Source of the DNA: Candidatus Eiseniibacteriota bacterium | GTDB taxonomy: Bacteria; Orphanbacterota; Orphanbacteria; Orphanbacterales; Orphanbacteraceae | Length of the DNA stretch: 64,000 nt | Assembly: GCA_029262235.1 (NCBI GenBank) | Contig: JAJCZU010000008.1 | Location: 195,621-259,620 of the forward strand | Direction: 5' to 3' | Shown: positions 3,343 through 58,925 of the stretch, piece after piece | Numbering within the stretch: the stretch's first letter is position 1 | Layout of the letters: each line of letters begins with the position of its first letter | Notes under the pieces: model-generated | The model's database searches: none | Told to the model about the DNA's origin: nothing | What the model saw: only the letters and a program-made list of their open reading frames with translations | Translations under genes and position numbers: made by a program

Positions 3343-3348
3343 GGGACC

Positions 3349-16201: not shown

Positions 16202-16232
16202 AAAAAAAGCGGGGGCGACTGGCACCCCCGCT
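16202..16232 (-). terminator. rho-independent terminator downstream of the CHRD gene
   Basis: On the minus strand: GCGGGGG-TGCCAGTC-GCCCCCGC followed by TTTTTTT, 29 nt after the stop. Confidence 0.7.
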
Positions 16233-16260
16233 TCTCAATCAATCCCTGAAATCAAAAGCT

Positions 16261-18081: not shown

Positions 18082-18182
18082 ATCAGCAACACCGGGCGAA
18101 AGGATTGCGTGGACGCTCCTGGTACTCTAAGCTTCCAATAGTAAACGTCCAAAGTACCCAAAGCTCTGACCGGGGGGATGAC

Positions 18183-18710: not shown

Positions 18711-18732
18711 CCGGCCCGAGAAAGTAACGTTC

Positions 18733-27093: not shown

Positions 27094-27167
27094 TGGCTGG
27101 GATGCAGGGATTCGAACCCCGATTTTTCGGTCCAGAGCCGAACGTCCTACCATTGGACGACATCCCA
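27094..27167 (-). tRNA. tRNA-Gln (anticodon CUG), CCA encoded
   Basis: Folded by hand. Acceptor UGGGAUG/CAUCCCA (U1-A72). D arm GUCC-AAUGGUA-GGAC. Anticodon arm UUCGG-CUCUGGA-CCGAA. T arm CGGGG-UUCGAAU-CCCUG. Discriminator G plus CCA. 74 nt. Confidence 0.9.
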
Positions 27168-36637: not shown

Positions 36638-37765
36638 CTAGAGATTGCCCGGATTGAGGCCGTCGAGCTCGGGGAGCACGAAGATACCGTCTTTCCGGAT
36701 GAGGCGGTCGTCGAAGTAGATCTCGCCGCCGCCATACTCGGGCGTTTGAATCAGGACCATGTCCCAGTGAACTGTCGAGCGGTTCGAGTTGTCCGCGTCG
36801 TCATAAGCACTGCCGACCGCCATATGAAGCGAGCCGCCGATTTTCTCGTCGAACAGAATGTCGCACATGGGGTTCTTGATCTTCGGGTTGAAACCGAGCG
36901 AGAACTCCCCGACATAACGCGAGCCGTCATCCGAGTCGAGAATCTTCGCGAGAGCTTCGTTGTTCGATGACGAGAAGTCGACGATCTTGCCGTCTTTGTA
37001 AACCAGCTTGATGTTTTCGAACTTCGTCCCGTGATAAATCGTCTGCGAGTTGAACGCGATCACACCCTGAATGCTGTCTTTGACCGGCGCCGTAAAACAT
37101 TCGCCGTCGGGAATGTTGCGGAGCCCGGAACACGGAACCGTCGGAATCCCCTTGATCGAAAACTGCAGATTCGTTTCGCCGGGCCCTTTGATGTGCACTT
37201 TGTCAGTGGCATCCATCAGCTTGACGAGCGGCTTCACGGCTTCGCCCATCCGCGCGTAATCGACCAGCACGACATCGAAATAGAAATCTTCGAACTTGTC
37301 CGTACTCATGCCGGCCTGCTGCGCCATCGACGGCGTCGGCCACCGGAGCACGACCCACTTCGTGTTCGGCACGCGCACTTTGCCGTGCACGTTCGCGAAC
37401 ACGTTCTTCTGATAGCTCTGCATCTTCTCGGAGGGAATGTCGGCGAACTCCGTGGTATTCCACGATCCACGGATCCCGATGTACGCCTGTACCTGCTCCA
37501 TCTGGAAACGCTCGATCTTCCCGATCAGCTTCATGCGTTCTTCGATTTGCGCCGGGCTCCCGATATTGTAGAGGTCGCGCTGCACCTGGTTGTCTTTCCA
37601 GTGCACGATCGGAATCCCGCCGGCGTCGGATGCGGCCCGAATCAGGGCGGTCACCATCGAGCGCGGAATGTCGAAGGCTTCGATCAGAACGACCTCGCCC
37701 TTCTTGAGCTCGACCGAATGCTCGATCAGCAGCTCCGCAAGCTTTGTTTCTCTCGGGTCTGTCAT
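36638..37765 (-). CDS. M29-family aminopeptidase (AmpS/PepS-like)
   Basis: 375 aa. The N-terminal KLAELLIEHSVELKKGEVVLIE and the overall colinearity are typical of the thermophilic metalloprotease family M29. Confidence 0.8.
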   Translation of the reverse strand: MTDPRETKLAELLIEHSVELKKGEVVLIEAFDIPRSMVTALIRAASDAGGIPIVHWKDNQVQRDLYNIGSPAQIEERMKLIGKIERFQMEQVQAYIGIRGSWNTTEFADIPSEKMQSYQKNVFANVHGKVRVPNTKWVVLRWPTPSMAQQAGMSTDKFEDFYFDVVLVDYARMGEAVKPLVKLMDATDKVHIKGPGETNLQFSIKGIPTVPCSGLRNIPDGECFTAPVKDSIQGVIAFNSQTIYHGTKFENIKLVYKDGKIVDFSSSNNEALAKILDSDDGSRYVGEFSLGFNPKIKNPMCDILFDEKIGGSLHMAVGSAYDDADNSNRSTVHWDMVLIQTPEYGGGEIYFDDRLIRKDGIFVLPELDGLNPGNL

Positions 37766-39794: not shown

Positions 39795-41324
39795 TTATCC
39801 GCGCTCGGGGAGTGACCGCCAGACCGGCCCGTTGCGCCCGGCACGGTTCCTCTTTTCGAGCCGGAAGAGATGCGCGAGAACCGATCGCTCCGCGAGCGCC
39901 TGCAGATCCGGTGATACGTCCGTATATGCCTTTTCTACAATCGCTTGAGTCGTTGCCGGGCCTTCGTTCAGAACGGCCAGTATCGCCGCCTCACGCGCCA
40001 TTCTGTGATCCACATACCGCCCGATCAGGCCCGCGGGATCACCGACAACGGCGCCATGCCCCCCGATCAGAATCCACGCGTCCAGCGCGCGCAGTTTCTC
40101 GAGAGAGGCGAGATAGTCGTCCATGTCGCCGTTCGGCGGATTCACGAGCACGGAACCGTGCCCGAGTACATGATCTCCCGCGATCAGAACGCGGGTCGAC
40201 TCTTCGAAAAACGCCAGATGCCCCGGCGCGTGACCGGGCGTGTGCACCGCCAGCAGTGTCCGCTCCCGCGGGCCGGCCAGGCGGATTCGCTCGCTGTCCT
40301 CGATCGCACGATCGAACGTGAAGTCAGGGAGCAGGTCGATCGTGGCCTGATGGGCCTCGACAGGGATGCCGTACCTTTCGCGTGCCGCCCGCACCGCCCC
40401 GATGTGATCCGGATGATGATGCGTCAGCAGAATTCGTGACGGCGTGCGCCCCTTCTCCGCCAGATCATCGATCATCGCGAACAGGACGCGCTGCTCGTCC
40501 CGGTCCTCAGGAGCGGGATCGATGAGGGCCATCTCCCCTTCGCCGAACAGAATCGTGTTCGTATGCGTCGCCGGGGGGAGCGTCCGCGTCTGCAGCGGGA
40601 CGAGCACGACGCCCGCGAGAATCTCGATCCGTCGCGTCGGCTCCCCGTGCGCTCCCCCGTGCGCGAGCGCGCGCTCCGCCACCTCACCGAGACTCCCCCC
40701 CGGCTCGATCGCTTCGAGCGTCGCCCTCGTGGGCGGCACGAGCAGAATCTCCAGCGAGCGCCATCTCGCGAGCGCCTCCCCCGCCGGCATCCAGTCCCAG
40801 CCCGCGATTTCCGGCGAGCGAAGGGAGATCTCCCTCTTCTCGCTCACGTCGACCAGAAAGAAATGCGTGTCGAACCGCCGAAACGAGAACGGGGGTGTCA
40901 GCCAGTTTCCGGCGGAAACGAACCCGCGCGCGTCAAGAGAGAGCCCCGCCTCTTCGAGGAGAGTCGCAAGCGGCGTCCCGTCGCGCTCGTACCGGTCCCA
41001 GAGTGCGCGCTGCTCCGCGGGCGGAATCGCCGGTTCCGCGAGCAGAATCGACGTTTCCTCGAAGAGCTCGCGGAGCGCCGCGGCCCGCAGGCCCCCGGAA
41101 TCACCGCCCAGGACCGGGAGATCCACGTCCGCGCGGTCGACCACGCCGCCGGGAAAACCGTGAAAGCCTCCCAGGAACGGCTGACTGGCCGAGCGACGAA
41201 CCAGGAGCACGTCTTTTCCGTCCCGCAGCACGACGGTGGCCGCGCGGCGCGGCTTGCGGGTTTTTTCGCTCGCGCTTCGGGTCAGATCACCCAAGGTGAT
41301 ACTCCGTGCCCCCCTGGGGGCCAA
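39795..41324 (-). CDS. NUDIX hydrolase - MBL-fold metallo-hydrolase fusion protein
   Basis: NUDIX box GGFHGFPGGVVD...ALRELFEETSI in the N-terminal 150 aa. HxHxDH motif (LLTHHHPDHIGA) and a downstream HTPGHAPGH in the C-terminal half. Confidence 0.8.
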   Translation of the reverse strand: MAPRGARSITLGDLTRSASEKTRKPRRAATVVLRDGKDVLLVRRSASQPFLGGFHGFPGGVVDRADVDLPVLGGDSGGLRAAALRELFEETSILLAEPAIPPAEQRALWDRYERDGTPLATLLEEAGLSLDARGFVSAGNWLTPPFSFRRFDTHFFLVDVSEKREISLRSPEIAGWDWMPAGEALARWRSLEILLVPPTRATLEAIEPGGSLGEVAERALAHGGAHGEPTRRIEILAGVVLVPLQTRTLPPATHTNTILFGEGEMALIDPAPEDRDEQRVLFAMIDDLAEKGRTPSRILLTHHHPDHIGAVRAARERYGIPVEAHQATIDLLPDFTFDRAIEDSERIRLAGPRERTLLAVHTPGHAPGHLAFFEESTRVLIAGDHVLGHGSVLVNPPNGDMDDYLASLEKLRALDAWILIGGHGAVVGDPAGLIGRYVDHRMAREAAILAVLNEGPATTQAIVEKAYTDVSPDLQALAERSVLAHLFRLEKRNRAGRNGPVWRSLPERG

Positions 41325-41601
41325 TTCCGTAAACTATGGTGCATGCAGTCAAAATATGACAACTCCTGTAGACAGTTCACGCCTTTTGCCCGCCTCCTGG
41401 GTTGACGCTCGAAGCGATTCATTTTGAAAGAGTTAGGGCAATTGCCGGGGATTCGGTCACCACTTGCTAACTTTGGTTGTCAGTTCAATCTTGATATGGA
41501 AGCGGCCTCTCGCTCTCATGCCGACATCCAATCCACGTTAAATACAACAAATCCATGTCGTTGTCCGTAAAAATTCTTTTATTCCTTTGTGACTGCAATG
41601 C

Positions 41602-41617
41602 TGGCACAACCGTTGCA
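41602..41617 (+). promoter_or_regulatory. sigma-54 (-24/-12) promoter, exact TGGCAC-N5-TTGCA
   Basis: cTGGCACaaccgTTGCAtt. The GG and GC dinucleotides have the canonical spacing. An AT-rich tract (41560-41595) lies immediately upstream. It sits in a 690-nt non-coding gap. Confidence 0.55.
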
Positions 41618-41627
41618 TTAACCAAGT

Positions 41628-41758
41628 GCATGGCCGAACGGGAGACCGGCCTGATCGAATACCTCGGCTTCGCATGTTGTTGCTTTCCTCAATGGGGGAG
41701 CGTGGGGAGGCAGTGACTTCGCCGAGGATTGAGAGGGAGCCTTCGGGCTCCCTTTTTT
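41628..41758 (+). ncRNA. candidate sigma-54-dependent small RNA (~130 nt)
   Basis: The predicted +1 is ~12 nt after the -12 GC. Hairpin GGCCG(41632-36)/CGGCC(41647-51). Long hairpin CCTCGGC(41662-68)/GCCGAGG(41721-27). Several GGA/GGGGA motifs. Ends at the GGGAGCC-TTCG-GGCTCCC hairpin plus T6 (41735-41758). No plausible CDS. Confidence 0.4.
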
Positions 41759-41927
41759 ATTGGTATTCAACCCCCGCGCGCTCACTTCAGGGAAGCCTTC
41801 GGGCTCCCTTTTTTATTGGTATTCAACCCCCGCGCGCTCACTCCAGGGAGCCTGCGGCTCCCTTTTTTATTGGTATTCAACCCCCGCGCGCTCACTTCAG
41901 GGAAGCCTTCGGGCTCCCTCCCTTTTT
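41735..41927 (+). repeat. tandem array (about 3.5 x 54-56 nt) in which every unit is a terminator-like hairpin + T5-6 followed by a conserved 31-nt spacer
   Basis: Hairpins at 41735-52, 41790-808, 41846-62 and 41900-18. T runs at 41753-58, 41809-14, 41863-68 and 41923-27. The spacer ATTGGTATTCAACCCCCGCGCGCTCACT(T/C)CA is repeated three times. Confidence 0.9.
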
Positions 41928-42012
41928 CGACCACACCCTTTCCCCTGTCCCGCCCGTCGATTATACTCTGCAGGAATCCCGGCATGAACCCCGAACGAAG
42001 CGAGTCCCTCAC

Positions 42013-43215
42013 TTGACGAGAAGTTTCAGCAAGGCGCCCTCCAAGGAAATCCGCGCTCAGGTAGGTGTCCAGATCGAGAGCGATTTCAGCTCGCGCCTGG
42101 TCGGCTATCTGCGTGAGAACGGGTACCAGCTCGAGGCGGGCGATACCACGATCAAGCTCGCGGCCGAATTCGGGTTCTGCTATGGGGTCGACCGGGCCAT
42201 CGAGTATGCGTTCGCGGCCCGCCACCGGTTCCCGAACCGCCGGATCTGGCTCACGGGCGAGATCATTCACAATCCGGGCGTCAACGAACGCCTTCGCGAA
42301 ATGAAGATCGATTTCCTGCCGAATACCGACGACAAGAGCGTGCGTTACGCCGACCTCGCGAAGGACGACGTGATCCTGATCCCGGCTTTCGGCGCGGACT
42401 CCGAGGAGATGACGTACTTCCTGAACGAGGGGTACGAGATCGTCGACACGACGTGCGGGTCCGTACTGAACGTCTGGAAACGAGTGCGGAAGTATGCGAA
42501 CGAAGGCTTCACGGCGCTCGTTCACGGGAAATTCGATCACGAAGAAACGATCGCCACCGTTTCGCAGGTGTGCGCGGAATCGCCCGACGGCCACTACCTC
42601 GTCGTTCTCGACCTCGAAGAAGCGAGGGAGCTTGCCGCGATGATCGTATCCGGCGACTGGAGTGACTTCGACCGGAAGTTCCCGGAGCACGCAAGAAGCA
42701 AAGGCTTCGACCCGGCCCGCGATTTGATGCGGATCGGCGTCGCGAACCAGACGACCATGCTGGAATCGGAGTCGCGCGAAATCGGCGAGATCGTGCGCGC
42801 CGCCATCGGCGAACGCTACGGCGCGGGCGAAACGGAATCGCACTTCCTGTCGTTCGACACGATCTGCAGCGCCACGGAGGATCGTCAGCGCGCGGTGAAG
42901 GAACTTCTCGCGGACGGTGTCGATCGCATGATCGTAATCGGCGGGTACAACAGTTCGAACACGGGCCACCTGCTCGAACTTTCGAGCGCCGTGATCCCGG
43001 CGTATCACATCGTCGACGCCGGCTGCCTGATCACGCCCGAACGCATCGTCGCCAAGCCGAACGGCCGCGAGCCTGTCGAGATGACGGGCTGGCTCCCCGA
43101 GGGACCGCAGGTGATCGGCGTGACCGGCGGCGCCTCGACGCCCGACTCGATCGTGGGCCTCGTGATCGAACGCATCCTGCAGCTGCGCGGCGTGCCGCTT
43201 CCCTCACTCACCTAG
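42013..43215 (+). CDS. ispH: 4-hydroxy-3-methylbut-2-enyl diphosphate reductase (long, cyanobacterial/plant-type form)
   Basis: AEFGFCYGVDRAIE, IIHNP, DTTCGSVLNVW, GVANQTTM, GGYNSSNT, GASTPD. No in-frame ATG lies upstream of the conserved core. TTG at 42013 is the best in-frame start; the ORF-track extension back to 41626 runs through the hairpin repeats. Confidence 0.85.
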   Translation: MTRSFSKAPSKEIRAQVGVQIESDFSSRLVGYLRENGYQLEAGDTTIKLAAEFGFCYGVDRAIEYAFAARHRFPNRRIWLTGEIIHNPGVNERLREMKIDFLPNTDDKSVRYADLAKDDVILIPAFGADSEEMTYFLNEGYEIVDTTCGSVLNVWKRVRKYANEGFTALVHGKFDHEETIATVSQVCAESPDGHYLVVLDLEEARELAAMIVSGDWSDFDRKFPEHARSKGFDPARDLMRIGVANQTTMLESESREIGEIVRAAIGERYGAGETESHFLSFDTICSATEDRQRAVKELLADGVDRMIVIGGYNSSNTGHLLELSSAVIPAYHIVDAGCLITPERIVAKPNGREPVEMTGWLPEGPQVIGVTGGASTPDSIVGLVIERILQLRGVPLPSLT

Positions 43216-43221
43216 AGCGCC

Positions 43222-46200
43222 TTAGAACGCTTTCAGCAATTCCTCGACAGCCTTTTCGAGCTGCGGATCCGCGCCCGAAACCCAGTCGTTGTAGCGATTC
43301 TCCACGTGGAAGTCGGGCTTGCGGCCGTTGTTCTCGAGGTTCTCGCCTTCGAGCGTGAACGCGCCCCACGACGGTTTGCGGAACGTAGACCCGTCCATCA
43401 GCCGCAGGTTGCTCGTGCCGATCACGGACCCTGCCGTCGGAATACCCACGATCGGGCCGAGACCGAGCTTCCGGAATCCTTCCGCGAGAATTTCCGCGTT
43501 CGAATAAGAATGATTATTGATGAGCAAAGCAGTCGGCTTCTCGTATCCGTACGATCGCATTTTGGTTTCTGACGTCAGCGGGAGCCCGCGGAAATTGCGC
43601 AGGAGAAACGGCTTCCGCTCGAGAATGCCGAGGATGTGGACCGCCGTGTACCCGCCCCCGTTGTAACGAACGTCGAGAATGGCGCCGTCCCTGCCGTCGG
43701 CCATCGTGACGAGCTCGCGATAGAACCGCCGCAGAGCGCCGGCGCCCATCGAACGAATGTGAAGATACGCGAGCTTCCCGTCGCTCCACTCGTCCACCAT
43801 GTCGCGGCGTTCCTGCACCCACTCCTCATACCGGAGCCCGATGATCGTATTGCGCGTGACGGGCTTGATGCGCACGACGCGCGACCCGCGGCCCGAAGCG
43901 TTTGCGGCCACTTCCACTTCCACACGCTTCCCGACCTTGCGCTCGAGGAGCGAGTAGAGATTCGTTCCGGGCACGAGCTTCACGCCGTCGATCGCGATCA
44001 GAAACTCACCGGCTTCGATCCGCGCGTCGTCCCGGTCGGCCGGGCTGTTCGGCACGACCGAAGCCACACGAAACGCCCCGTCGTCGACCATGCGCGGGAA
44101 ATCGAGTCGAACGCCGAGATCGCCCGTAAAGTCGTTCTGTGAAGAGGGGGACGAAAAATTGAGATGAGAAGCGCCGAGTTCACCGACCATGAGGAGCATG
44201 AGCTCCTGGTAGTCTTTCGTAGTCGTCGCGAAGGGCAGTAACGCTTCGTACTTGAGGCGCACTTTATCCCACGACGCCCCGTGATACTCCGGGTCGTAGA
44301 ACTGGTCGTCGAGCAGCGACCAGCCCTCGAGAAACATCTGTTTCCAGAGCGCAACCTGATCGACTTCCATCTCGGCATCGAAAGACACCGACTCGCGGCT
44401 CTTCGCCCCCTTCTCCACGTCGACGGAATGGATCTTCCCGCCTTCTTCATACCAGACAACATTCCCGTCCGCGTACACGCTCCCCTTCGACTTCTCGGAC
44501 GTCGTGAGCTGCACGAGCTCCTTGTCTTTCTCGTCGCCGGTCGGATACGCCCAGAGATCGTAGCCGTCAAGCACGTTCGCCGAAAAGACCATGTGCCCCG
44601 ACTCGGTGAACACCGGGTCGAATTCGTTCGCCGCGATCCCGGGATACGCGGCCATGCGGAGATCGATCCGGTTGAAATCGATCACGACCGGTTTGGCTTC
44701 CTCTTCTTTCTTCTTGTCCTTCTTCTTGTCCTTCGCGTCTTCCTCGTCATCCGCGGGCTCGTCGTAGAGGGAGTCGAGCACATCCTCGTCGAACGTGAGC
44801 TTTTCGTCTTTCAAACGAACGCGGTACGTATCGATGTCGTCGTCGAACGAAGACGTGAAGTAGATATACTCGCCGTCCGGCGACCACACGGGGCGCTGAT
44901 TCGATCGCGAAAGCCAGCTGATCGCTTCGTCGCGTCCCGAAGCGAGTTCGCGCACACGAATGTCGGTGTGGAAATCTTTCGCGTACTGCGTGTACGCAAT
45001 CCACTTGCCGTCGGGCGACCACGAAAAGTTGTCGTCCGACTGCAGGCGAAGATCGAGGAAGTCGCCCTTGATGCGCTCCTTCACGTTGCGACCGTCCGCG
45101 TCGATCGTCTTGATCGTGTTGTTGCCGTGATAGTAGGCAATCACGTCGTCCGTGGGCGAAGGGTTCGGCTTCGACTCGTTCTCGCTCGTTGCGATCAGCA
45201 CGGATTCCGTGCCCGTTTTCGTATCACACTTGAAGAGATCGAGATTGCCGCTCCTGTCGGACGAATAGACGATCGTGCGCGAATCCGAGAGCCAGCGCAC
45301 ATCGCGTTCGCGCCACGGAGTCATCGTCATGCGCCGCGCCTGCCCGCCGTCCTTCGCGGGCACGACGAAAATCTCGCCCTGCACGACGAGCGCGATCTTC
45401 TTTCCGTCGGGCGAAACGCGAAACTCCGAAACGTCCTTCCCGAACGTCTTGTAGGAGACGGTGTTCTCTTTGCTTTCGGTGGCGCAGTCGATCGTGATTT
45501 TTTTGCCCTCAGGCGCGCCGAGCGTGTGCACCCACACGTCGAAGAACGCGCTGTACACCATTACATTGCCGCGCTCGGCAACCGAAAGCCAGGTGACGTC
45601 ATCGTCGAAATTCGTAATCGCGCGCGATTCGCCGCCGGCGGCAGGCACCGAGAACACGTTGAGCCGGCCCGCGCGCCCCGACACGAAGTACACGGTCTTG
45701 CCGTCGGGCGAAAAATGCGGCCAGAGATCGTGGAAGTCTCCTTCGACGAGCGGCTGCGGGCGAATCCCCTTCAGCGAAAAATCGGCAATATGAATATCGG
45801 CCGCGTCACTCGATTCGAAGAACCGGCGGCGCCATCCCGAGACGCTCCGGTTATCGTTGTAGAGAAGTTTTTTCCCGTCGGGCGAAAGGTTCGCGAACGA
45901 CTCGCGCTCGTTGTACACGTAGGAAATCTGGATCGGCATGCCGCCGGTCGCGTCGATGACCCACAGATCTTCCGAGCCCCCGCGCCTCGTTTCAAACAGG
46001 ATGCGCCCGTCCGGAGTCCAGTCGCGCGGTGTGTCCGTATTCGAATGATGGGTCAACTGTTTCGGTTCGCCCCCACCCGCGCCGATCACGAAAACATCTC
46101 CGTTGCCGCGCCGGTCGGACGAAAACGCGATCATCGTGCCGTCGGGCGACCAGACCGGCGTCCCGTCGTAAGCGACATGATCCGTAATCCGGGTCGCCTT

Positions 46201-46374
46201 GCCGCCCGCAACGGGCACGGTCCAGATATCGCCGGCGTAGGAGAACGCGATCCGCGTCCCGTCCGGCGAAACTTCGGGAGTCTGCACGAAACGGACCGGT
46301 TCGGCCCCGGCCGGGGGAACGGTAACGAGCGCCGTGACCACAAGAAGCATGGCGCGCACCAGACGGTGGAACAT
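43222..46374 (-). CDS. tricorn-like protease (TolB-type beta-propellers + PDZ + S41 peptidase domain)
   Basis: 1050 aa with a signal peptide. Repeated SPDG..IAF/Y..... blades. The C-terminal third carries PDZ-like and S41-like regions (AILDVRYNGGG...). Confidence 0.8.
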   Translation of the reverse strand: MFHRLVRAMLLVVTALVTVPPAGAEPVRFVQTPEVSPDGTRIAFSYAGDIWTVPVAGGKATRITDHVAYDGTPVWSPDGTMIAFSSDRRGNGDVFVIGAGGGEPKQLTHHSNTDTPRDWTPDGRILFETRRGGSEDLWVIDATGGMPIQISYVYNERESFANLSPDGKKLLYNDNRSVSGWRRRFFESSDAADIHIADFSLKGIRPQPLVEGDFHDLWPHFSPDGKTVYFVSGRAGRLNVFSVPAAGGESRAITNFDDDVTWLSVAERGNVMVYSAFFDVWVHTLGAPEGKKITIDCATESKENTVSYKTFGKDVSEFRVSPDGKKIALVVQGEIFVVPAKDGGQARRMTMTPWRERDVRWLSDSRTIVYSSDRSGNLDLFKCDTKTGTESVLIATSENESKPNPSPTDDVIAYYHGNNTIKTIDADGRNVKERIKGDFLDLRLQSDDNFSWSPDGKWIAYTQYAKDFHTDIRVRELASGRDEAISWLSRSNQRPVWSPDGEYIYFTSSFDDDIDTYRVRLKDEKLTFDEDVLDSLYDEPADDEEDAKDKKKDKKKEEEAKPVVIDFNRIDLRMAAYPGIAANEFDPVFTESGHMVFSANVLDGYDLWAYPTGDEKDKELVQLTTSEKSKGSVYADGNVVWYEEGGKIHSVDVEKGAKSRESVSFDAEMEVDQVALWKQMFLEGWSLLDDQFYDPEYHGASWDKVRLKYEALLPFATTTKDYQELMLLMVGELGASHLNFSSPSSQNDFTGDLGVRLDFPRMVDDGAFRVASVVPNSPADRDDARIEAGEFLIAIDGVKLVPGTNLYSLLERKVGKRVEVEVAANASGRGSRVVRIKPVTRNTIIGLRYEEWVQERRDMVDEWSDGKLAYLHIRSMGAGALRRFYRELVTMADGRDGAILDVRYNGGGYTAVHILGILERKPFLLRNFRGLPLTSETKMRSYGYEKPTALLINNHSYSNAEILAEGFRKLGLGPIVGIPTAGSVIGTSNLRLMDGSTFRKPSWGAFTLEGENLENNGRKPDFHVENRYNDWVSGADPQLEKAVEELLKAF

Positions 46375-47325: not shown

Positions 47326-50300
47326 ATGTGCAAACGAGTATCCCCGGCTCTTGCACTTGCTTGCCTTGTTGCATTCCTTCTCCCGTCCGATCTTCTCGCA
47401 AAAAAACCGGCTGCCAACAGCGCCGCGATCGACAAGACCTCGATCGCAGAAAGAACGCCCGTTCCGATTCGCATCGAGTCGAACTGGCGTGTGCGCGACG
47501 ACCGTTCCGGTGACTTCGCGAGAAGAATGTATCGTCGAGACTTTCAGACCGTGATGCCGACGCGCCAGAGCGACGATCCGGTGGCGGTCGCGCTCGACTT
47601 TCTCGCGGACGAAGCGGAACGCCTGAACCTTCCCGTGCAGGCGGGACAGGCCGGCAAGGCTTCAACGCTCGGTCTCGGACTCGAGCGAGTGAAAGCAAGC
47701 GGCAGCGGCAACCACGTGACGTTCACGCAGCAGGTCGGCTCCGTGCCGGTCTGGCGGAGCGACGTTGTCGTGAACATGACGCACCAGAACGTCGTCTACT
47801 CGGTGTTCAACGAGTCGCGCGGCGAGCTGGATCTCGACGTTTCTCCCGCATTCGACGGGATCGAAGCGCGCAGGATCGCGGTGGAGACCATCAAGCCCAC
47901 GAGCATGATGGGCGAGGTGAAGAGCAAGCTGTACGTGATGGACGTCCACGAAGACGGCACGTACAGGCTGGTTCATCGCGTAACGGTTCCCGCGCAGGAG
48001 CCGATCGGCGACTGGGTCGTGGCGATCGACGCGAAAACGCGCGAGATACTGAGAATTCACGACCAGCGCGTATTCGACACGGGTACCGGCAAGGTCTTCA
48101 ACCCGGACCCGATCACGACCATGCAGGACGAGTCGATCCTCGACAACGGCGACTCGAACGCCCTGATTCCGGACGCGGCGTACGACACGCTGGCCCTCAC
48201 GGATCTCGATCCGCCGGTCGGCGGCCTCTACAGCCTCGACGGCGCGTGGGCGCGCATCACGGACCACGAAGCCCCGACGCACGCCGCGCCGCAACTCGCT
48301 GATCCGAATGCTTACATCTATGATCGCAGCAATCTGAACTTCGAAGATGTGAACGTCTACTATCACATCACGGCGTTCCAGAACTACATCCAGTCGATCG
48401 GCGTATTCGGCGCGAACCAGCGCGTGCAGGAACTCGACGCGCACGGACTCTCCGGCGCCGACAACTCGCACTACGTGCTTTCGACGACGCAGATCGCGTA
48501 CGGCGACGGCGGCGTCGACGACGCGGAAGACGCGGACGTGGTCATTCACGAATACGGCCATGCCATTCACCATAATATCGTGCCGAGCTGGGGCGGCGGC
48601 GACGCCGGCCGCATGGGCGAAGGCTTCGGCGATTACCTCGCCTGGTCGTGGTCAATGCAGCAGAGCACGTTCGGCGACGACAAGATCTTCAACTGGGACG
48701 GTCACAATTCGTTCTGGCCCGGACGCCTCGCGGTCGACTCGACCCTGCACTACCCGGAAGACAACTCGGGCGTGCACACACCGGGCGGAACGCTCTGGTG
48801 CTCGGCGACGACGAGCGTTTGGCGCGAAATCGGCGGCGCGACTGCCGATGAAGTGCTGCTCGACGCGCACTTCGCCGTGGGCTCCGGCGCCACGATGCCT
48901 GACGTCGCGAACGCGGCCGTCAACTCGGACGTCGCGATCAACGGCGGCGCCAACGTGCAGGGCATCGTCAACACGTTCGACTTCTGGGGCATCCTGGATG
49001 CTTCGAGCTTCCTGCCGTCGATCGGGCACACGGCCCTCACCGACACGGAAGACATGGTCGGCCCGTACACGATCGATGCCGTTGTAACCAGCGCGCAGGC
49101 GCTCGACACGTCGAGCATCCGCGTGATCTACGGCACGACCGGCACGTTCACGGACACGCTCACGATGGCCAATGCCGGCGGCAACAACTACACCGCCGAC
49201 ATTCCGGGCCCGCTCAACAACGTGACCGTGCAGTACTACATCACGGCTTCGGACTCGGGCGGCGGCACGTCGACGCATCCGTCCGGCGCACCGGGCAACT
49301 TCCATTCGTTCTTTATCGGAGCGGACGTCACGCCGCCGGTGATCTCGCATACGGCGCTGAACGACAAGCCGTACATCAAGTGGCCGGCTACGGTTTCCGC
49401 CACGATCACGGACAACCTCGGCGTGAACGACGACTCCGTACAGGTCACGTGGGCGCTGAACGCGGCGCCGCAGGCGACGTTCAACCTCGTACGCGTCGGC
49501 GCGACCGACCTCTTCAGCGGCGACTTCCCGAGCGACACGACCATGGTCTCGATCGGTGACCTGATCGACTACCAGATCTGCGCGAAGGACAACTCGTCGA
49601 ACGAAAACCAGTCGTGCGAACCGTCGGTCGGAACGAATGCGTTCAAGCTGATCGCAACGCTCGGCGTGATCCTCGTACTCGACGACGACGAAGTCGCCAA
49701 AGAGCGCGAAGCGAAAATCATCAAGGGCCAGGCCGTTCAGATTCCGCCCGTGCGTGACTTCTCGAAGGTCGGCAAAGTGGCGGACGACATGGTCGACATG
49801 CTGAACGAAATGGGCTACGTCGCGACGAAAGAAGCGGCAAACACGAGCGATCCCGGCACATGGTCCGGATACGATCTCGTCGTTTCGTCGTCCGGTAAAA
49901 ACGAAGGTCCGGTTGCCGATGCCGGTTATCGCACGGCACTCGAGAACTACGTGGCGGGCGGCGGAAAGCTTCTCGTCGAAGGGGGCGAAGTCGCTTACGA
50001 CGCGATCAGCAGCCCGGGATACCCGAGCTTCGCAGCGAACGTGATTCACGGAAGCGCCTGGACCGGCGACAACGTCGGCACGCTGAACCTGCTCGCCGGC
50101 CAGTCGTCGCATCCGATCGCCACGAACCCGAACGCACTCCCGTCAGCGCTGACGGTCGCGTATACGGGATTCGGCGATCAGGACGCGTACACGAACGCGG
50201 ACGCCAGCACCTACACGGTCTACGAAACGACCACCGACCCGGGTGACGGCGGAATCGTCGTGTACGACGACAATCCGGCGCCCCAGAGCGCGCAGATCGT

Positions 50301-51336
50301 CATCTACGCGTTCGACTTCTCGGTCGTGGCCGATTCATCGACCCGTTACCAGATGCTGGAAAACACCGCGGCGTTTCTGCTCGCGGCCGAAGGCGGAGCA
50401 ACCGGCTCCATTTCCGGCAACGTGAACCTCGTCGGTTCGGGTGACAACTCCGGCGCAATCGTAACGGCCGGCGGAGAGTCGGACACGACAGATGTCGCCG
50501 GTGACTACCTGATCACGGGACTCTACGCCGGCACGTACAGTGTGACAGCGACAAAGTCCGGATACGCCGCCGGCACGCAGCCCGGTGTCAACGTCACCGA
50601 CAATACGAACACGCCGAACATCGACTTCACGCTCGGCGCCATTGCCACGGACACGATCTGCATCACGCCGGGAACCGCGATCATCGACCTCGACTCGATC
50701 GCCGTTCCTCTGAACGTGACGCAGAGCATCACGATCAGTGAAATCGACATGTCGGTTCGCATTCTGCATACGTACATCGGTGATCTGGAGGTCGCACTCC
50801 ACTCGCCGCAGGGTACGACGGTGCGCGTGCACGACAACACCGGCACTTCGGCTGACAGCATCAGCACGACGTATGACGCCATCACGGCCCCGTCAGGCCC
50901 CGGCTCCATGAGCGACTTCAACGGTGAAGACGCCCAGGGCAACTGGTATCTGTCGGTCGTCGACGGCGGAAACGGCGACGTCGGTACGGTCGAAGAAGTC
51001 TGCCTGATCATCACGTACGGCCTCACGGCCACGGACGTGGCGGACGGAAGCGTTCCACGCAGGTTCGAACTGCACCCGAACCGCCCGAACCCGTTCAACC
51101 CGACCACGACGATCTCGTTCGATGTTCCGAAAGCGACACACGTTCGCCTCGGCATCTATAACACGAGCGGGCGACTCATTCGGACGGTCGTTGACGAAAC
51201 GATGCAGGCCGGTTCACGCCAGATCCTCTGGGACGGCAGAAACGATTCCGGCAAGTCGGTTTCTTCGGGTCTTTACTTCTACAAGATCGAAGCCGACGGC
51301 TTCACGGAGACGCGGAAGATGACGCTCATCCGATAA
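47326..51336 (+). CDS. 1336-aa secreted zinc metalloprotease (M36 fungalysin-like HEYGH...GEGFGDY) with Ig-like modules, CarboxypepD_reg domain, proprotein-convertase P-domain and Por/T9SS-type C-terminal sorting domain
   Basis: Signal peptide MCKRVSPALALACLVAFLL. VVIHEYGHAIHH plus MGEGFGDYLAWS. P-domain ...HTYIGDLEVALHSPQGTTVRVHD...EDAQGNWYLSVVD. CTD NRPNPFNPTTTISFDVPKATHVRLGIYNTSGRLIRTV...LWDGRNDSGKSVSSGLYFYKIEA...KMTLIR. Confidence 0.8.
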   Translation: MCKRVSPALALACLVAFLLPSDLLAKKPAANSAAIDKTSIAERTPVPIRIESNWRVRDDRSGDFARRMYRRDFQTVMPTRQSDDPVAVALDFLADEAERLNLPVQAGQAGKASTLGLGLERVKASGSGNHVTFTQQVGSVPVWRSDVVVNMTHQNVVYSVFNESRGELDLDVSPAFDGIEARRIAVETIKPTSMMGEVKSKLYVMDVHEDGTYRLVHRVTVPAQEPIGDWVVAIDAKTREILRIHDQRVFDTGTGKVFNPDPITTMQDESILDNGDSNALIPDAAYDTLALTDLDPPVGGLYSLDGAWARITDHEAPTHAAPQLADPNAYIYDRSNLNFEDVNVYYHITAFQNYIQSIGVFGANQRVQELDAHGLSGADNSHYVLSTTQIAYGDGGVDDAEDADVVIHEYGHAIHHNIVPSWGGGDAGRMGEGFGDYLAWSWSMQQSTFGDDKIFNWDGHNSFWPGRLAVDSTLHYPEDNSGVHTPGGTLWCSATTSVWREIGGATADEVLLDAHFAVGSGATMPDVANAAVNSDVAINGGANVQGIVNTFDFWGILDASSFLPSIGHTALTDTEDMVGPYTIDAVVTSAQALDTSSIRVIYGTTGTFTDTLTMANAGGNNYTADIPGPLNNVTVQYYITASDSGGGTSTHPSGAPGNFHSFFIGADVTPPVISHTALNDKPYIKWPATVSATITDNLGVNDDSVQVTWALNAAPQATFNLVRVGATDLFSGDFPSDTTMVSIGDLIDYQICAKDNSSNENQSCEPSVGTNAFKLIATLGVILVLDDDEVAKEREAKIIKGQAVQIPPVRDFSKVGKVADDMVDMLNEMGYVATKEAANTSDPGTWSGYDLVVSSSGKNEGPVADAGYRTALENYVAGGGKLLVEGGEVAYDAISSPGYPSFAANVIHGSAWTGDNVGTLNLLAGQSSHPIATNPNALPSALTVAYTGFGDQDAYTNADASTYTVYETTTDPGDGGIVVYDDNPAPQSAQIVIYAFDFSVVADSSTRYQMLENTAAFLLAAEGGATGSISGNVNLVGSGDNSGAIVTAGGESDTTDVAGDYLITGLYAGTYSVTATKSGYAAGTQPGVNVTDNTNTPNIDFTLGAIATDTICITPGTAIIDLDSIAVPLNVTQSITISEIDMSVRILHTYIGDLEVALHSPQGTTVRVHDNTGTSADSISTTYDAITAPSGPGSMSDFNGEDAQGNWYLSVVDGGNGDVGTVEEVCLIITYGLTATDVADGSVPRRFELHPNRPNPFNPTTTISFDVPKATHVRLGIYNTSGRLIRTVVDETMQAGSRQILWDGRNDSGKSVSSGLYFYKIEADGFTETRKMTLIR

Positions 51337-51348
51337 CTGTTCACTCTG

Positions 51349-51381
51349 CGGGGGCGGGGTCACGGGACTCCGCCCCTTTTT
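51349..51381 (+). terminator. rho-independent terminator after the metalloprotease gene
   Basis: GGGGCGG(51351-57) ... CCGCCCC(51370-76) followed by TTTTT, 13 nt after the TAA. Confidence 0.7.
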
Positions 51382-51418
51382 CATTTCGCCTCATTTCGAT
51401 ACAACAGGAGTCTTACGA

Positions 51419-53926
51419 ATGAACTTTCGGCGCATGGCATTGCTGGTCCTCGTTCTCGGGGCGGTCTTCTCCGCCGCTCCCGCGATTGCGCTCGATCGCG
51501 TCTGGGTGGCGACAATCCCTCCCGGCGAATCGATCGAAACGGCATGGACGCTGGGCGCTGAAGTATTCGACCGCACTCCCGAAATGTTCGTACTGGGCGA
51601 CGCGCACTCCGCAGCCACGCTCGCCGGCGCGGGCTGGACGGTGGACGGCCCGTACGACCTGGACACGGACAAACGTCACACGCTCGGTTACGAAAAGGGC
51701 ACCTCGTTCGGAATCGCCGACATCGACTTCAGCGTCGCCGCGCCCGGCGCGCGCATCCTCTGGGCGCGGGGCCGATCACTTCTCACGGAAACCACTGACG
51801 AGTTCCCGCACATCGATTACGGCGAACAGCACCGCCATATCAAACTGCAGAACCTGCGGAAGCGGGCGATTCGACGACCGATCGTGCAGGCTCCCGCGCG
51901 CGAGAAAGCCGCGGCCACCACGTTTCTTCCCATCATCTCGGACATCATGGCGCAGGTCGACTCGAACGCTCTCAAGACCTGGGTCGACAATCTTTCAGGC
52001 GAAAATTCCGTTCTGATTTCGGGGAATCCGTTTACGATCGCCACGCGCTGGACCGACAACGCGCAGTGCGACACGGCCGAACGCTATGTGCTCGAGCGCT
52101 TCCAGGCGATGGGCATTCCGGCGCAGTTCGACCCGTACTCGTTCTCGGGCACGGACGCACGCAATGTAGTCGCCACGATCACGGGCACCGAAACACCGAA
52201 CAACATCTACATCATCGGCGGGCATCTCGACTCACGCGCACAGAGCTCGCCGCACAATCCGGCCCCGGGCGCGAACGACAACGCTTCAGGGACGGCCGCC
52301 GTGCTTCACGCCGCCGAGATTCTGAAAGACTACGAATTCAAATCGACGATCAAGTTCATCGCGTTCACGGGGGAAGAGCAGGGGCTCTTCGGCAGCGAGC
52401 ACTACGCCGCGGCGGCCGCAACGGCGGGCGACAACATTCTGGGCGTCGTGAACTGCGACATGATCGCCTGGTACAACGCGCAGTATCAGATCGACATCGA
52501 AGGCGAAAACGCGTGGGCGGCGCTCATGCAGGTCATGGACGATGCGTGCACGGAATTCACGACGCTGAACACCGTGCAGACGTTCTTCAGCTTCGGCTCG
52601 GATCACGTGCCGTTCCAGAATGAAGGCTTCCCGGCGTTTCTCGCGATCGAATCCGAGTATGGTTCGTACCCCTGCTATCACGTGACGTGCGACACATCCG
52701 ACAACAACAAGTACACGTTCGGCTGGGAAGTCACGAAGGCGTGCATCGCCACGATCGCGCATCTCGCCGACCCGGTCGGCCTCTCGATTCAGCACACGCC
52801 GATCGCGAACACGCAGGACACGGTCGGCCCGTACACCGTGACGGCCGTGATCACTTCGCCCGACCCGATCATCGCCGACTCGCTCCGCATGCACTACGCG
52901 ATCGACGGCGGCGGCTTCACGAACGTGCTCATGACGCCGACTGGCGGCACCGACGAATACAGCGCCGACATTCCGGGGCAGAGTTCGAACACGACCATTA
53001 CCTATTATATTGCCGCCGCCGACTCGACCGGGCGAAGCGAAACGAGTCCGGCCGGCGCGCCCGGGTCGGTGCACCAGTTCTTCATCGGCAGCGTGCAGAC
53101 GTTCGCATTCGAAAATTTCGAGTCGGCCGTGATCGGATGGTCGCACGGCGGATCGAACGACGACTGGGAGCTCGACGCGCCGCAGGGACTCGCGGAGGAT
53201 CCGGCAACAGCATCCTCCGGTACCATGGCGTACGGAAACGACCTGACCGGGCTCGGAGCGAGCTCCGGCAAGTACGAGAACAACTCCGACAACTGGCTGC
53301 AGTCCCCTTCGATCGACTGCACGGACTACACCGACGTCAAACTGTCGTTCCAGCGCTGGCTCGCCGTCGAGCGGTCGAACAACCAGCAGTGGGACTGGGC
53401 GCGCGTTCTCGTGAACGGCAACATCATCTGGGAGAGCCCGTCGGGCGCGAATCTGATCGACGCGAGCTGGACGTTCCAGGAATTCGACATCAGCGCCTAC
53501 GCCGACAACAACCCGAGCGTCGTGGTGCGCTTCGAACTGCACTCGGACGTATCGCTCTCGTTCGGCGGATGGACGATCGACGACTTCAAATTCACGGGAA
53601 TCGGGCCGCCGACCGCGACCGACGTCGCGGGCTCGGACGCCGCCCCTCGTTCGATGCGCCTCTTTGCGAACACGCCGAACCCGTTCAACCCGACCACGAG
53701 CATCCGTTTCGCGCTTCCCGCGCCCGCGGAGATCGAGCTCGCGGTGTACGACATCTCCGGGCGCCGCGTGAAGACGCTGGCAGCGGGTCAGTTCCCGGCG
53801 GGCGAGCACGCCGCCACGTGGACCGGTATCGACGAATCGGGCCGCCCGGCCGCGTCAGGCATCTATTTCTACCGGCTTACGGGGGCGGACGAGACGAAGA
53901 TCCGCAAGATGCTCCTCGTCCGCTAG
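51419..53926 (+). CDS. secreted M28-family aminopeptidase with Ig-like module, MAM/LamG-like domain and Por/T9SS-type C-terminal sorting domain
   Basis: GGHLDSRA...APGANDNASGTAAVL...FIAFTGEEQGLFGSEHY (M28 metal ligands). CTD NTPNPFNPTTSIRFALPAPAEIELAVYDISGRRVKTL...WTGIDESGRPAASGIYFYRL...KMLLVR. Confidence 0.85.
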   Translation: MNFRRMALLVLVLGAVFSAAPAIALDRVWVATIPPGESIETAWTLGAEVFDRTPEMFVLGDAHSAATLAGAGWTVDGPYDLDTDKRHTLGYEKGTSFGIADIDFSVAAPGARILWARGRSLLTETTDEFPHIDYGEQHRHIKLQNLRKRAIRRPIVQAPAREKAAATTFLPIISDIMAQVDSNALKTWVDNLSGENSVLISGNPFTIATRWTDNAQCDTAERYVLERFQAMGIPAQFDPYSFSGTDARNVVATITGTETPNNIYIIGGHLDSRAQSSPHNPAPGANDNASGTAAVLHAAEILKDYEFKSTIKFIAFTGEEQGLFGSEHYAAAAATAGDNILGVVNCDMIAWYNAQYQIDIEGENAWAALMQVMDDACTEFTTLNTVQTFFSFGSDHVPFQNEGFPAFLAIESEYGSYPCYHVTCDTSDNNKYTFGWEVTKACIATIAHLADPVGLSIQHTPIANTQDTVGPYTVTAVITSPDPIIADSLRMHYAIDGGGFTNVLMTPTGGTDEYSADIPGQSSNTTITYYIAAADSTGRSETSPAGAPGSVHQFFIGSVQTFAFENFESAVIGWSHGGSNDDWELDAPQGLAEDPATASSGTMAYGNDLTGLGASSGKYENNSDNWLQSPSIDCTDYTDVKLSFQRWLAVERSNNQQWDWARVLVNGNIIWESPSGANLIDASWTFQEFDISAYADNNPSVVVRFELHSDVSLSFGGWTIDDFKFTGIGPPTATDVAGSDAAPRSMRLFANTPNPFNPTTSIRFALPAPAEIELAVYDISGRRVKTLAAGQFPAGEHAATWTGIDESGRPAASGIYFYRLTGADETKIRKMLLVR

Positions 53927-56642: not shown

Positions 56643-58917
56643 ATGAAAAGCCGAAACATGCGCCACCTTCTGACGAGTTCGCTATTGATCGCCGCCCTCT
56701 GCGCCTCCGCATTCGCGTCTTCCGACGCGGACGAACTGCGGGACGAGTTCCGCCGGGCCGAAATGGAACGCCACGCGGCGTGGGCCGCGAGCGCCACGGC
56801 CCTGAAGCGCATCCCGGTGCATGAGCCTGTTTATGACGTCACGTCCTACGAAATCGACATCACTCCTGAACAGGCCGACTCGAGCATCACGGGCTCGGTG
56901 CTGGTACGCGCCCAATCGCTCGTCGATACACTTTCGTCCCTCCAGCTCGATCTCACGGATACACTGCAAGTCGACTCAATCACGGGCAGCGCTGCTTCGT
57001 ACGTTCATATGGCCGACCTGATCACGATCACGCTCGATCGCACATACACGACGGGCGAGGAAGTCGACCTCACGGTTTACTACTCGGGGAAGCCGCGGCC
57101 GTTTGCCCGGCGCTACGGATTAAACTGGGGCCACAACGGGCTACAACCCGTGATCCACAGCTACGTCGAACCGTTCTTTGCCAACTACTGGTGGCCATGC
57201 AAGGACGTTCCCTGGGACAAGGCGGACTCGTGCCGCGTTGCAATCACGGTTCCCGACTCGCTGTACGCGGTGTCGAACGGAGTGCTCGCAGACTCGTCGG
57301 CGGCCGGCCCCGGCCATACGAAATACGAATGGATCACGCGCCATCCCATTTCCACTTATCTCGTTTCAATCGCGATCTCGAACTACACGACGGTTCATGA
57401 CGAGTACGAGAGCATCGGGGGTGAAACGGTGCCTCTGCGAAACTACGTGTACCCGGAAGACGTGAGCATCGCCGAGGCTACCTTCGAAGGACTTCCCGAC
57501 TATATGGCGCACGCGGAGAGCCTGTTCGGGGCGTACCCGTTTCGCGACGAGAAGTACGGGCATGCGATCGTTCCCGGCCTCGGGGCGCTCGAGCACAATA
57601 CGGTTACGACGTGGGGCCATCGTCTGCTCGCCTTCAACGGCGGGTTCGACAACATCGTCGTGCATGAACTGGCGCACCAGTGGTGGGGCGATCTCGTGAC
57701 GTGCGCCGACTGGCACGATCTCTGGCTGAACGAAGGCTTCGCCAGTTACGTGGAGGCGCTCTACCGCGAGTCGCGATTCGGACCGGACGCGCTCGCCAGC
57801 TACATGATCGGGCACGAGTACCACGGCGGGCAGCCCGTTTACGTCTCCGACATTCCCGACGGCGGCGGCCTGTTTACCCCCGCCTACACGTCCGCAATCT
57901 ACGGAAAAGGGGCGTGGGCTCTTCACATGCTCCGCTACGAAATCGGCGACGATACTTTCTACGCCGGACTCTCCCGCCACAAGGACGAAGGCGTCGCACG
58001 CGGCGGCATCGCGACCACGGAGCAGTTCCAGGATGCGATGGAGACGGAGAGCGGGCAGGATCTCGACTGGTTCTTCGATCAGTGGGTCTACGGATCGGGA
58101 ACCCCGCGATTTCAGGCGTACCCGTTCATGACGATCGCGGGCGATTCCGTCAACATCCGGATCGCCCAGACCGGCGACCGGCTTTTCCGCCTCAAGTTTC
58201 CGATCATGGCGGGTGACACGACATTCGTAGTGGAGACGTCGGACTCGCTGCTGCAGTTCGCGTTCGCGGGATCAGGCATCGACGACATCGCGCTCGATTA
58301 CAGGAACTGGCTGCTCGACGAAAGTTTCGACTCGGAGAATGACGCGCGGCTCACGATCGACGAATCCGGCGCGCGGCCCAAACTCTTGTGGGAGATGAAG
58401 GACCCGTTCTTTTCGGGGGTCTATCTCTTTCGCGCCGACAGCGCGGACGGGCCGTGGAGGCAGATGACGCTCGAACCGATCATGGGACGCTCGGGAACGT
58501 ACACGATCGATCGCGTGACGAAGACAGAGTACTTTGCGATGCGTTCGATTTCGGACAATATGCCCGGCTTCTGGACGTCGCTTTCGCGAACCGTAACGAA
58601 TCGCGAGCCGTCTCACATCGATCTCGACAGCGGCGACGAGCCAGGCGCGCCGACCTCGAACCCGTATGTCGTGTCCGACAACGGCGAGTACAGGATTCGC
58701 TTCGACCTGCCCGAACCGACCGCGGTCACGATCCAGATCTACAATATTGCGGGAAGGCTGGTGCGGGAAGTGGCGTCGGGCCGGTCGTTCGGCGCCGGTT
58801 TCGACCGGGAAGTCGTATGGGACGGCAAAAACAATCTCAACTCCCCGGTCGTCCCCGGCGTCTATTTCGTGCGCTTCGAAGCGGGTGGTTTCGAGGCCAC
58901 GCGCAAGTTTGTCGCCA

Positions 58918-58925
<8 letters not shown>
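56643..58925 (+). CDS. secreted M1-family aminopeptidase with Por/T9SS-type C-terminal sorting domain
   Basis: GALEHN (GxMEN variant), [27 protein letters not shown] ...[28 protein letters not shown]...[23 protein letters not shown]...KFVAIK. Confidence 0.9.

Follow-up and report, generated by a model that had tools for sequence, protein, structure and literature searches.

What would be transcribed from an exact match to the sigma-54 (-24/-12) promoter consensus that lies in the intergenic DNA in front of ispH, and what might the transcript do? The question arises from a stretch of 64,000 nucleotides of a Candidatus Eiseniibacteriota genome (assembly GCA_029262235.1, contig JAJCZU010000008.1, positions 195,621 to 259,620; hereafter the window, in whose numbering all positions are given unless a homologous locus is named). 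Here a gap of 688 nt (41325-42012) is flanked by a gene for a NUDIX-metallo-beta-lactamase fusion protein (NUDIX-MBL) and by ispH. An earlier reading of the window by itself had proposed that the promoter drives a structured, terminated non-coding transcript of about 130 nt, a candidate regulatory small RNA (sRNA). The 14 homologues assembled here and the compensatory changes among them support that proposal and confirm, by comparison of sequences, a real and new sRNA gene with a sigma-54-type promoter and a conserved control region, which belongs to a known kind of regulator but to a family of its own. Probably, this is a free-standing gene whose product of approximately 130 nt regulates in trans and founds a family not described before, with a predicted dependence on sigma-54 and an enhancer-bound activator. 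Candidatus Eisenbacteria is a phylum known mainly from metagenome-assembled genomes (MAGs) and its gene regulation is almost unstudied. The locus overturns nothing and is a sound, unsurprising example of its kind, the novelty being that of a new family in a barely studied phylum.

A sigma-54-type promoter conserved amid drifting surroundings

The string cTGGCAC-AACCG-TTGCAt is the sole exact match to TGGCACNNNNNTTGCA on either strand of the window, with -24 and -12 elements correctly spaced as the original prediction had it. Dinucleotide-preserving shuffles yield 0.03 expected exact matches, the same figure as the rough estimate of about 0.03 made at the time. The sequence TGGCA(C/T)-N5-TTGC is kept in 14/14 homologues, in all of which the two elements lie 14-18 nt upstream of the first hairpin of the RNA. 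Upon alignment of the 14 sequences on the promoter (42 nt), conservation is limited to TGGCA(C/T) and (G)TTGC: the spacer is free except for the G preceding TTGC (kept in at least 12 of the 14), and both flanks are unconserved. TGGCAC-N5-TTGC occurs upstream of ispH at three Eisenbacteria loci and at none of 76 loci from other phyla. Judging by the usual distance from -12 to +1, transcription would start near 41628, a few nucleotides before the first hairpin. The site combines exact elements and spacing with orthologous conservation in drifting surroundings and with conserved upstream boxes in the range usual for activator sites (about 80-250 bp), which are described below.

The tract upstream of the promoter had also been likened to a binding site for integration host factor (IHF). 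It is AT-rich, as stated (GC 0.42-0.44), but the resemblance to an IHF site, a common though not obligatory companion of sigma-54 promoters, is not supported: no match to the consensus WATCAANNNNTTR, allowing up to one mismatch, is present in the 125 nt upstream of the window's -24 element. Among the homologues, a near match between the proximal conserved box (box C, see below) and -24 is found in locus L001 only, and one match in L086 lies at -117, beside that box. We note in passing a second near-consensus sigma-54-type site in the window, TGGGAC-N5-TTGCA, with one mismatch (16650-16665, minus strand), approximately 540 nt upstream of an M61 peptidase gene in a stretch without a supported gene.

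A conserved and covarying RNA fold

The DNA downstream of the promoter has the anatomy originally described for it, namely a short hairpin (P1), a long arm closed by CCTCGGC/GCCGAGG (P2), G-rich loops, and a GC hairpin followed by six T residues (Table 1). The 133-nt stretch has a minimum free energy of -57.9 kcal/mol (z = -3.05 versus dinucleotide shuffles), and a covariance model of the RNA matches positions 41624-41764 with 127.2 bits (E about 1e-27) and has no second true match in the window. Across the 14 distinct sequences, 98.3% of the cells of the consensus fold form standard pairs. Double-sided changes affect 14 pairs and 53 cells, compared to 9.4 pairs and 16.3 cells in column shuffles, none of 500 of which reached the observed values, and to at most 6 pairs and 15 cells in slid controls. 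In the P3/P4 helix seven pairs have changes on both sides, as do seven of the 11 pairs of the terminator helix. RNAalifold and explicit pair counting were concordant as to the layout of the helices, and a MAFFT-only alignment of 10 sequences gave the same picture of covariation. The original prediction had named, among the grounds for its dismissal, a region in which conservation and compensatory changes were both missing in relatives; both conservation and compensatory changes were looked for and found.

Most of the covariation falls in P3 and the terminator; P1, P2 and P4 hardly vary. The stem of P1 is invariant in 14/14 homologues and its loop reads AACGGGAGAC in 13 of them, the sole variant being AGCGGGAGAC in L122. 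P2 is nearly invariant, its few changes being limited to G-U wobbles. The core of the P4 apical loop, UGGGGGAGCG, is the same in all 14 sequences and the consensus of the whole loop, RUGGGGGAGCG, is almost invariant; GGGAG is displayed in both of these nearly invariant apical loops. An A/U-rich linker, ATTGAGA, precedes the terminator, whose 5' arm always carries a third G-rich element (GGGA, GGGGGA or GGAGGA). The RNA had not been recognised as any Rfam family, and the searches agree, also for its relatives: the region has no Rfam match at the gathering score or at E <= 10, and seven homologous loci have none at E <= 5.

Distribution of the RNA

The 14 distinct sequences originate from Candidatus Eisenbacteria-type MAGs and metagenome contigs. 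Among the MAGs that carry the RNA are JABDJQ01, JALGYY01, JBDROZ01, JAJRWB01, JBDRFQ01, JAGUYC01 and JALGVM01, to which the ENA contig sets ERZ25039508 and ERZ24794656 can be added. The nearest relatives of the window's IspH protein (64% identity) are likewise encoded in Candidatus Eisenbacteria MAGs. A scan with a pattern requiring both loops led to six GTDB genomes and to a further three distinct sequences from metagenomes. Since retrieval by such a pattern biases the apparent conservation of the loops, loci were also fetched by protein alone. A Tricorn-protease profile recovered the same six genomes before identity dropped to 40% in Acidobacteriota, IspH homologues located on contigs provided five further loci, and a search based on NUDIX-MBL returned two loci that were both already known.

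Wherever upstream DNA was available and the IspH shared 58% identity or more with that of the window, the covariance model detected the RNA, with scores of 107-149 bits (L119, 90%; L120 and L121, 67%; L128, 65%; L127, 60%; L122 and L123, 58%). It found no RNA at 55% IspH identity (L124/L125 and L129), nor any homologue upstream of ispH at the 76 loci of Gemmatimonadota, Acidobacteriota, Latescibacterota and other phyla, where the best score was 17.9 bits (E = 0.09); L126, whose IspH shares 52% identity, does not extend far enough upstream to judge. The RNA is single-copy in each genome and, as far as sampled, the family is restricted to one clade of Candidatus Eisenbacteria-like bacteria. The model, of 137 positions, is in a form that can join RNA family libraries.

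Candidate activator sites upstream of the promoter

Three short boxes stand out as conserved in the upstream DNA of the homologues, the flanking intergenic DNA of which is not alignable. Box C, the nearest to the promoter, is a palindrome whose core, CAAC-N4-GTTG, is invariant in 13/13 homologues and whose centre lies 119-145 nt upstream of the -24 GG. The outer positions of its two halves vary without compensation, which fits a protein-binding DNA site; an RNA hairpin at this place was considered and ruled out, as the outer positions do not covary. Box B is found 65-66 nt before box C in 13/13 homologues with upstream DNA. It could instead be the -35 element of a sigma-70 promoter, with the proviso that the -10 hexamers 17 nt downstream are poor or inconsistent. 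Thirteen homologues extend far enough upstream to show box A, and ten of them have it, at -226 to -253 and always 42-43 nt ahead of box B. It reads G(T/C)CAAC-N5/6-TTGCC in the relatives and is degenerate in the lineage of the window. In the window it overlaps a sigma-70-like -35 element on the minus strand that would serve the NUDIX-MBL gene (promoter-like site at 41362-41333).

The boxes are retained whichever gene lies upstream, be it the divergent NUDIX-MBL gene, a co-oriented metallophosphoesterase gene or, in L122, ispH itself, indicating that they belong to the RNA gene. Their conservation and layout, reminiscent of the enhancer of a sigma-54 activator, suggest that they are probably activator sites. 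The locus can be read from sequence as a complete regulatory unit, in which candidate enhancer sites precede a sigma-54 promoter and a two-looped structured RNA ends in a terminator, and CAAC-N4-GTTG together with its companion boxes provides a DNA motif with which to trace the cognate activator.

Table 1. Features of the sRNA locus and its surroundings in the window.
Feature	Position	Strand	Description
Box A	41358-41373	+	GACAAC-N5-TAGAC; ~237 nt upstream of the -24 GG
Box B	41401-41415	+	GTTGAC-N5-(T/G/A)A(A/G)C; ~195 nt upstream of -24
Box C	41465-41480	+	Palindrome GCTAAC-TTTG-GTTGTC; centre ~130 nt upstream of the -24 GG
Sigma-54-type promoter	41602-41617	+	TGGCAC (GG at 41603-41604), spacer AACCG, TTGCA (GC at 41615-41616)
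Predicted sRNA	41628-41758	+	~131 nt, from predicted start to end of T6 tract
P1 hairpin	41632-41651	+	GGCCG/CGGCC, 5-6 bp; 10-nt loop AACGGGAGAC at 41637-41646
Long arm P2-P3-P4	41662-41727	+	Closed by P2
P2	41662-41668 with 41721-41727	+	CCTCGGC paired with GCCGAGG, 7 bp
P3	Within long arm		Variable helix, ~10 bp
P4	41687-41691 (5' strand)	+	CCTCA paired with TGGGG/TGAGG, 5 bp
P4 apical loop	41692-41702	+	ATGGGGGAGCG, 11 nt
Intrinsic terminator	41735-41758	+	GGGAGCC-TTCG-GGCTCCC (41735-41752) and T6 (41753-41758); terminator scan match
Tandem array	41734-41919	+	56 nt x 3.4; TRF score 337, 93% matches
-10-like box	41958-41967	+	CGATT-TATACT; about 45 nt before the ispH TTG start
ispH (LytB)	42013-43215	+	4-hydroxy-3-methylbut-2-enyl diphosphate reductase; Pfam LYTB, E = 1.6e-64; probable TTG start
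NUDIX-MBL fusion gene	39795-41324	-	Pfam NUDIX, Lactamase_B, BLACT_WH; divergent upstream neighbour
Peptidase genes	9473-10702, 14617-16107, 36638-37765, 43222-46374, 47326-53926, 56643-58925, 63333-63986

Possible modes of action

In the scheme that we favour, RNA polymerase carrying sigma-54 would bind at 41602-41617 and be activated by a bacterial enhancer-binding protein at the boxes located at about -130, -195 and -237, with transcription running from near 41628 into the T6 tract. The need for a dedicated activator would imply that synthesis of the RNA awaits a specific signal. The RNA probably acts through its two loops, which contain the Shine-Dalgarno core GGAG. Once made, it may expose the GGGAG sequences of its two loops and the third GGA element of the terminator arm as mimics of Shine-Dalgarno/GGA sites, titrating a protein of the CsrA type or a similar RNA-binding protein in the manner of RsmY and RsmZ. 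By analogy with these RNAs, we tentatively put titration forward as a possible mode of action, somewhat short of an even chance, with base pairing (see below) a little less likely still and the remainder left to another protein or ligand partner.

A number of observations weigh against this scheme. The conserved GGA-containing elements number three, a count below that of typical CsrA sponges, and are not of the ANGGA type; two are in loops, and the third belongs to the terminator stem, on its 5' side. The consensus defined for CsrA by systematic evolution of ligands by exponential enrichment (SELEX) is not matched by the loop sequences CGGGAG and GGGGGAG. The stems of P1 and P2 are invariant on both strands, which a simple model of GGA sites or of seeds leaves unexplained and which hints at a folded RNA recognised by a protein or ligand. 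Three of the 14 sequences (L087, L090 and L091) were found only by the loop-requiring pattern scan, which inflates the apparent invariance of the loops in them. A motif scan (GAFTGA, Walker and RpoN box) and Pfam scans of the 37 window ORFs revealed no gene for RpoN or an enhancer-binding protein in the window or in the fetched flanks (a Sigma54_activat match in ClpB was rejected as generic AAA+), and literature searches on Eisenbacteria yielded nothing relevant on sigma-54 or rpoN. When duplexes of the two loops with 37 translation-start regions of the window were scanned for, no target stood out; the top scores ranged from -15 to -19 kcal/mol with no clear outlier, a result that is uninformative in GC-rich DNA. 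Finally, CsrA homologues have been reported in Eisenbacteria, a point in favour of titration, but few of them were predicted to be functional in a Bacillus-based assay (PMC13443453). The RNA described here makes it possible to look for RNA antagonism of CsrA in this phylum, whose CsrA homologues are divergent.

The most serious rival to protein titration keeps the same gene, promoter and fold and has the RNA act purely by base pairing, the invariant G-rich loops being seeds for CUCCC-type mRNA segments. Pairing might free a sequestered ribosome-binding site (anti-antisense activation), and the A/U linker, terminator hairpin and U-tail would constitute a module for an Hfq-type chaperone. Invariance of entire loops of 10-11 nt, well beyond GGA, is as expected of seeds; the order of parts, from the 5' hairpin through the A/U-rich linker to the terminator and its U-tail, is typical of Hfq-type sRNAs; and the Qrr RNAs, the best known of the sigma-54-dependent sRNAs, act by pairing. 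G-rich seeds are, however, unusual, most sRNA seeds being C/U-rich and targeting Shine-Dalgarno sequences. Moreover, inspection of the ispH leader disclosed no conserved site complementary to the loops, the duplex scan singled out none of the 37 start regions, and the duplicated GGGAG looks more like repeated protein sites. Action by base pairing alone is, in our view, unlikely, though a contender.

More specialised versions of a trans-acting role can be envisaged. The RNA might be a sensor or regulator of the methylerythritol phosphate (MEP) pathway that binds a pathway intermediate or an IspH-related protein, a link that is proposed because the RNA stays beside ispH even after an inversion (see below) and because the invariant P1 and P2 resemble the core of a ligand- or protein-binding RNA; or it might be the first sigma-54-controlled CsrA-type sponge of the Fibrobacteres-Chlorobi-Bacteroidetes (FCB) superphylum. 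We hold this pair of proposals to be improbable.

Comparison with known regulatory RNAs

Foremost among the RNAs that the titration scheme brings to mind are RsmY and RsmZ of Pseudomonas, with which the RNA of the window shares a size of approximately 110-130 nt, GGA motifs in hairpin loops and an intrinsic terminator, as well as, by inference for the window RNA, an activator bound to a conserved upstream palindrome. RsmY and RsmZ are transcribed from sigma-70 promoters under the control of GacA and carry about 4-7 GGA sites in ANGGA-type loops, whereas the window RNA has a sigma-54-type promoter, three G-rich GGA elements and invariant loops of 10-11 nt. Rfam, within which Rsm and Csr models are to be expected, contains no model that scores at E <= 10, CsrB, RsmY and RsmZ included.

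Among RNAs under sigma-54 control, Qrr1-5 of Vibrio (sigma-54 and LuxO) have in common with the window RNA a -24/-12 promoter, upstream sites, a terminator and a conserved functional segment. They differ from it in being multi-copy paralogues with four stem-loops and a single-stranded pairing region, the window RNA being single-copy and folding differently. In the case of GlmY/GlmZ of enterobacteria and CrcZ/CrcY of Pseudomonas, sigma-54 and an activator (GlrR and CbrB, respectively) drive an sRNA that sequesters RapZ or Hfq/Crc; their folds, motifs (A-rich in CrcZ) and phyla are different from those of the window RNA, and GlmY has an IHF site, of which no consensus match precedes the promoter of the window RNA. 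Pxr of Myxococcus and NrsZ of Pseudomonas are stem-loop sRNAs controlled by sigma-54 and NtrC-type activators which show no similarity to the window RNA in sequence or structure. The tandem modules of NrsZ loosely recall the tandem array described in the next section, except that the repeat in the window duplicates only the terminator and a spacer and not the functional domains. None of the Qrr, GlmY/GlmZ, CrcZ, Pxr and NrsZ families was matched in the Rfam searches of the region (E <= 10) and the seven homologous loci (E <= 5), and this result, together with the different fold, places the RNA outside these sigma-54 and Rsm families. By analogy, it would be like Qrr, GlmY, CrcZ, Pxr and NrsZ in its production and may be like RsmY and RsmZ in its action.

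Independence from ispH

The proximity of ispH suggests another explanation, that of a cis-acting ispH leader (a riboswitch or attenuator), in which sigma-54 transcription would enter ispH whenever the terminator is overridden by a leader bound to a ligand or protein. The RNA adjoins ispH in every homologous locus that reaches the neighbouring gene (L081 stops at a contig end and its ispH is on the partner contig L004), it lies directly upstream in the same orientation except in a single lineage, and its highly conserved stems and loops are aptamer-like. Riboswitches for MEP-pathway intermediates are not known, which would leave a niche for one. The exceptional lineage largely refutes this explanation. 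In L122 and L123, the whole module of boxes, promoter, RNA and terminator is inverted and transcribed away from ispH (1920-2340 in L122), which places the candidate enhancer boxes between two divergent genes. Adjacency itself may be largely inherited synteny, given that the wider gene order is largely kept in the clade (DHH, M29, (NaPi, NUDIX-MBL), RNA, ispH, Tricorn, M36); its survival through an inversion is still notable.

The DNA between the RNA and ispH also speaks against a leader. The terminator is canonical as regards its hairpin and T6 tract, as had been pointed out, but the original prediction overlooked that it is the first unit of a tandem repeat (56 nt x 3.4) situated between the sRNA and ispH, each unit of which consists of the terminator hairpin, the T-tract and a 30-nt spacer. 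Homologous arrays are found at the equivalent position in its two closest relatives (L119, 55 nt x 5.4, 2195-2498; L086, 54 nt x 4.9, 3006-3268) and are absent from more distant homologues. They share the hairpin and TTTTYTATTGGT; the spacers differ from genome to genome and are uniform inside any one array. Logan contigs assembled from short reads of the window organism go no further than the array, on account of which the copy number in the window may be inexact. Transcription from the sRNA promoter would have to cross 3-5 consecutive terminator copies before ispH in the window, L119 and L086, and in the window lineage the most likely effect of these copies is to shield the ispH promoter from read-through. 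In L002, a repeat-filled spacer of 730 nt separates the sRNA terminator from ispH. This spacer (2268-2952) contains a 79-nt direct repeat (81% identical, copies 186 nt apart) and two long inverted repeats with arms of 32 nt (91% complementarity) and 22 nt (95%), which look like inserted miniature repeat elements.

Downstream of the terminator, ispH likely has its own promoter: a -10-like box, CGATT/TGATT/CGACT followed by TAT(A/T/C)(A/C/T)T, is found 40-60 nt before the ispH start in nine of the ten loci compared (the window, L086, L119, L001, L002, L003, L085, L090, L092 and L120; the L087 stretch is too short). Just before the CGATT/TATTCT box of L085 (4150-4200), and at the equivalent places in L090 and L092, lies the string CTGGC(A/G)C-N5-TCGCG or similar, which is weakly -24/-12-like, lacks conservation in the remaining lineages and probably belongs to the promoter region of ispH. 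As to attenuation, no conserved competing helix is apparent on inspection: the arms of the terminator covary and the conserved domains are fixed, and the free covariation of terminator sequences argues that there is no conserved antiterminator pairing. An essential gene is, furthermore, unlikely to depend on an activator-gated promoter. A leader function is accordingly very improbable. Comparison of the loci shows the sRNA gene to be laid out independently of ispH transcription, with a promoter and an intrinsic terminator of its own and a non-coding product with a conserved, covarying fold, all of which are the marks of a free-standing sRNA gene.

Two further explanations have next to nothing left in their favour. 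GC-rich intergenic DNA folds readily and might combine a chance promoter-like string, fortuitous hairpins and an ordinary terminator without any functional RNA, but conservation and covariation refute this, the promoter, fold, loops and boxes being kept, with compensatory changes and amid unalignable flanks, in 14 sequences whose IspH proteins are mostly 57-67% identical to that of the window. A small protein, for example one encoded by the ATG-initiated frame of 28 codons that the window does possess at 41631, is refuted by the alignment: relatives lack the ATG (CGAGG is found there), indels and length differences are not multiples of three, substitutions track base pairing and not codon position, and the frames running across the hairpins are, as first supposed, artefacts with no conserved ORF among them.

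Genomic context

The neighbour on the other side of the RNA is inconstant. A co-oriented metallophosphoesterase gene takes the place of the NUDIX-MBL gene in L002, L090 and L127, and in L122 the sRNA module lies beside the gene for a FlgD_ig protein. The intergenic gap that houses the RNA had been described as the largest non-coding gap of the window, which is not borne out, as 16108-17025 and 2413-3916 are likewise without a supported gene.

The array has consequences for the annotation of ispH. Gene callers extend ispH upstream into it (region 41626-43215 of the window), giving products of 447 amino acids (P0002) and 441 amino acids (L097, 10740-12065), while conservation points to a probable product of about 400 amino acids initiated at the TTG codon at 42013. 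An exact-protein look-up of the 400-amino-acid IspH of the window found it not to be on record, probably because gene callers had picked another start. Short-read assemblies, too, break at the array.

The window is otherwise rich in peptidase genes (aspartyl protease-PDZ, M61, M29, Tricorn/S41, M36, M28 and M1; Table 1). Several of their products have C-terminal FlgD_ig or Por_Secre_tail domains, which, along with the number of peptidases, suggests type IX-style secretion and a proteolytic lifestyle. In L086, the reading frame of the Tricorn protease gene (plus strand, about position 300) is interrupted by a stop codon (AAN*FDPVF) at a place occupied by glutamate in the window; the candidate explanations are a recoded codon in MAG SS_bin_27, a pseudogene and an error of sequencing. 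A tRNA gene at 27097-27167 (minus strand; 66.2 bits) is the sole Rfam match at the gathering score in the window. Lastly, a gene for an extracytoplasmic function (ECF) sigma factor (18069-18710) is overlapped directly 3' by one for a Ser/Thr protein kinase with TPR repeats (18625-21288), and the two may form a sigma/kinase signalling pair.

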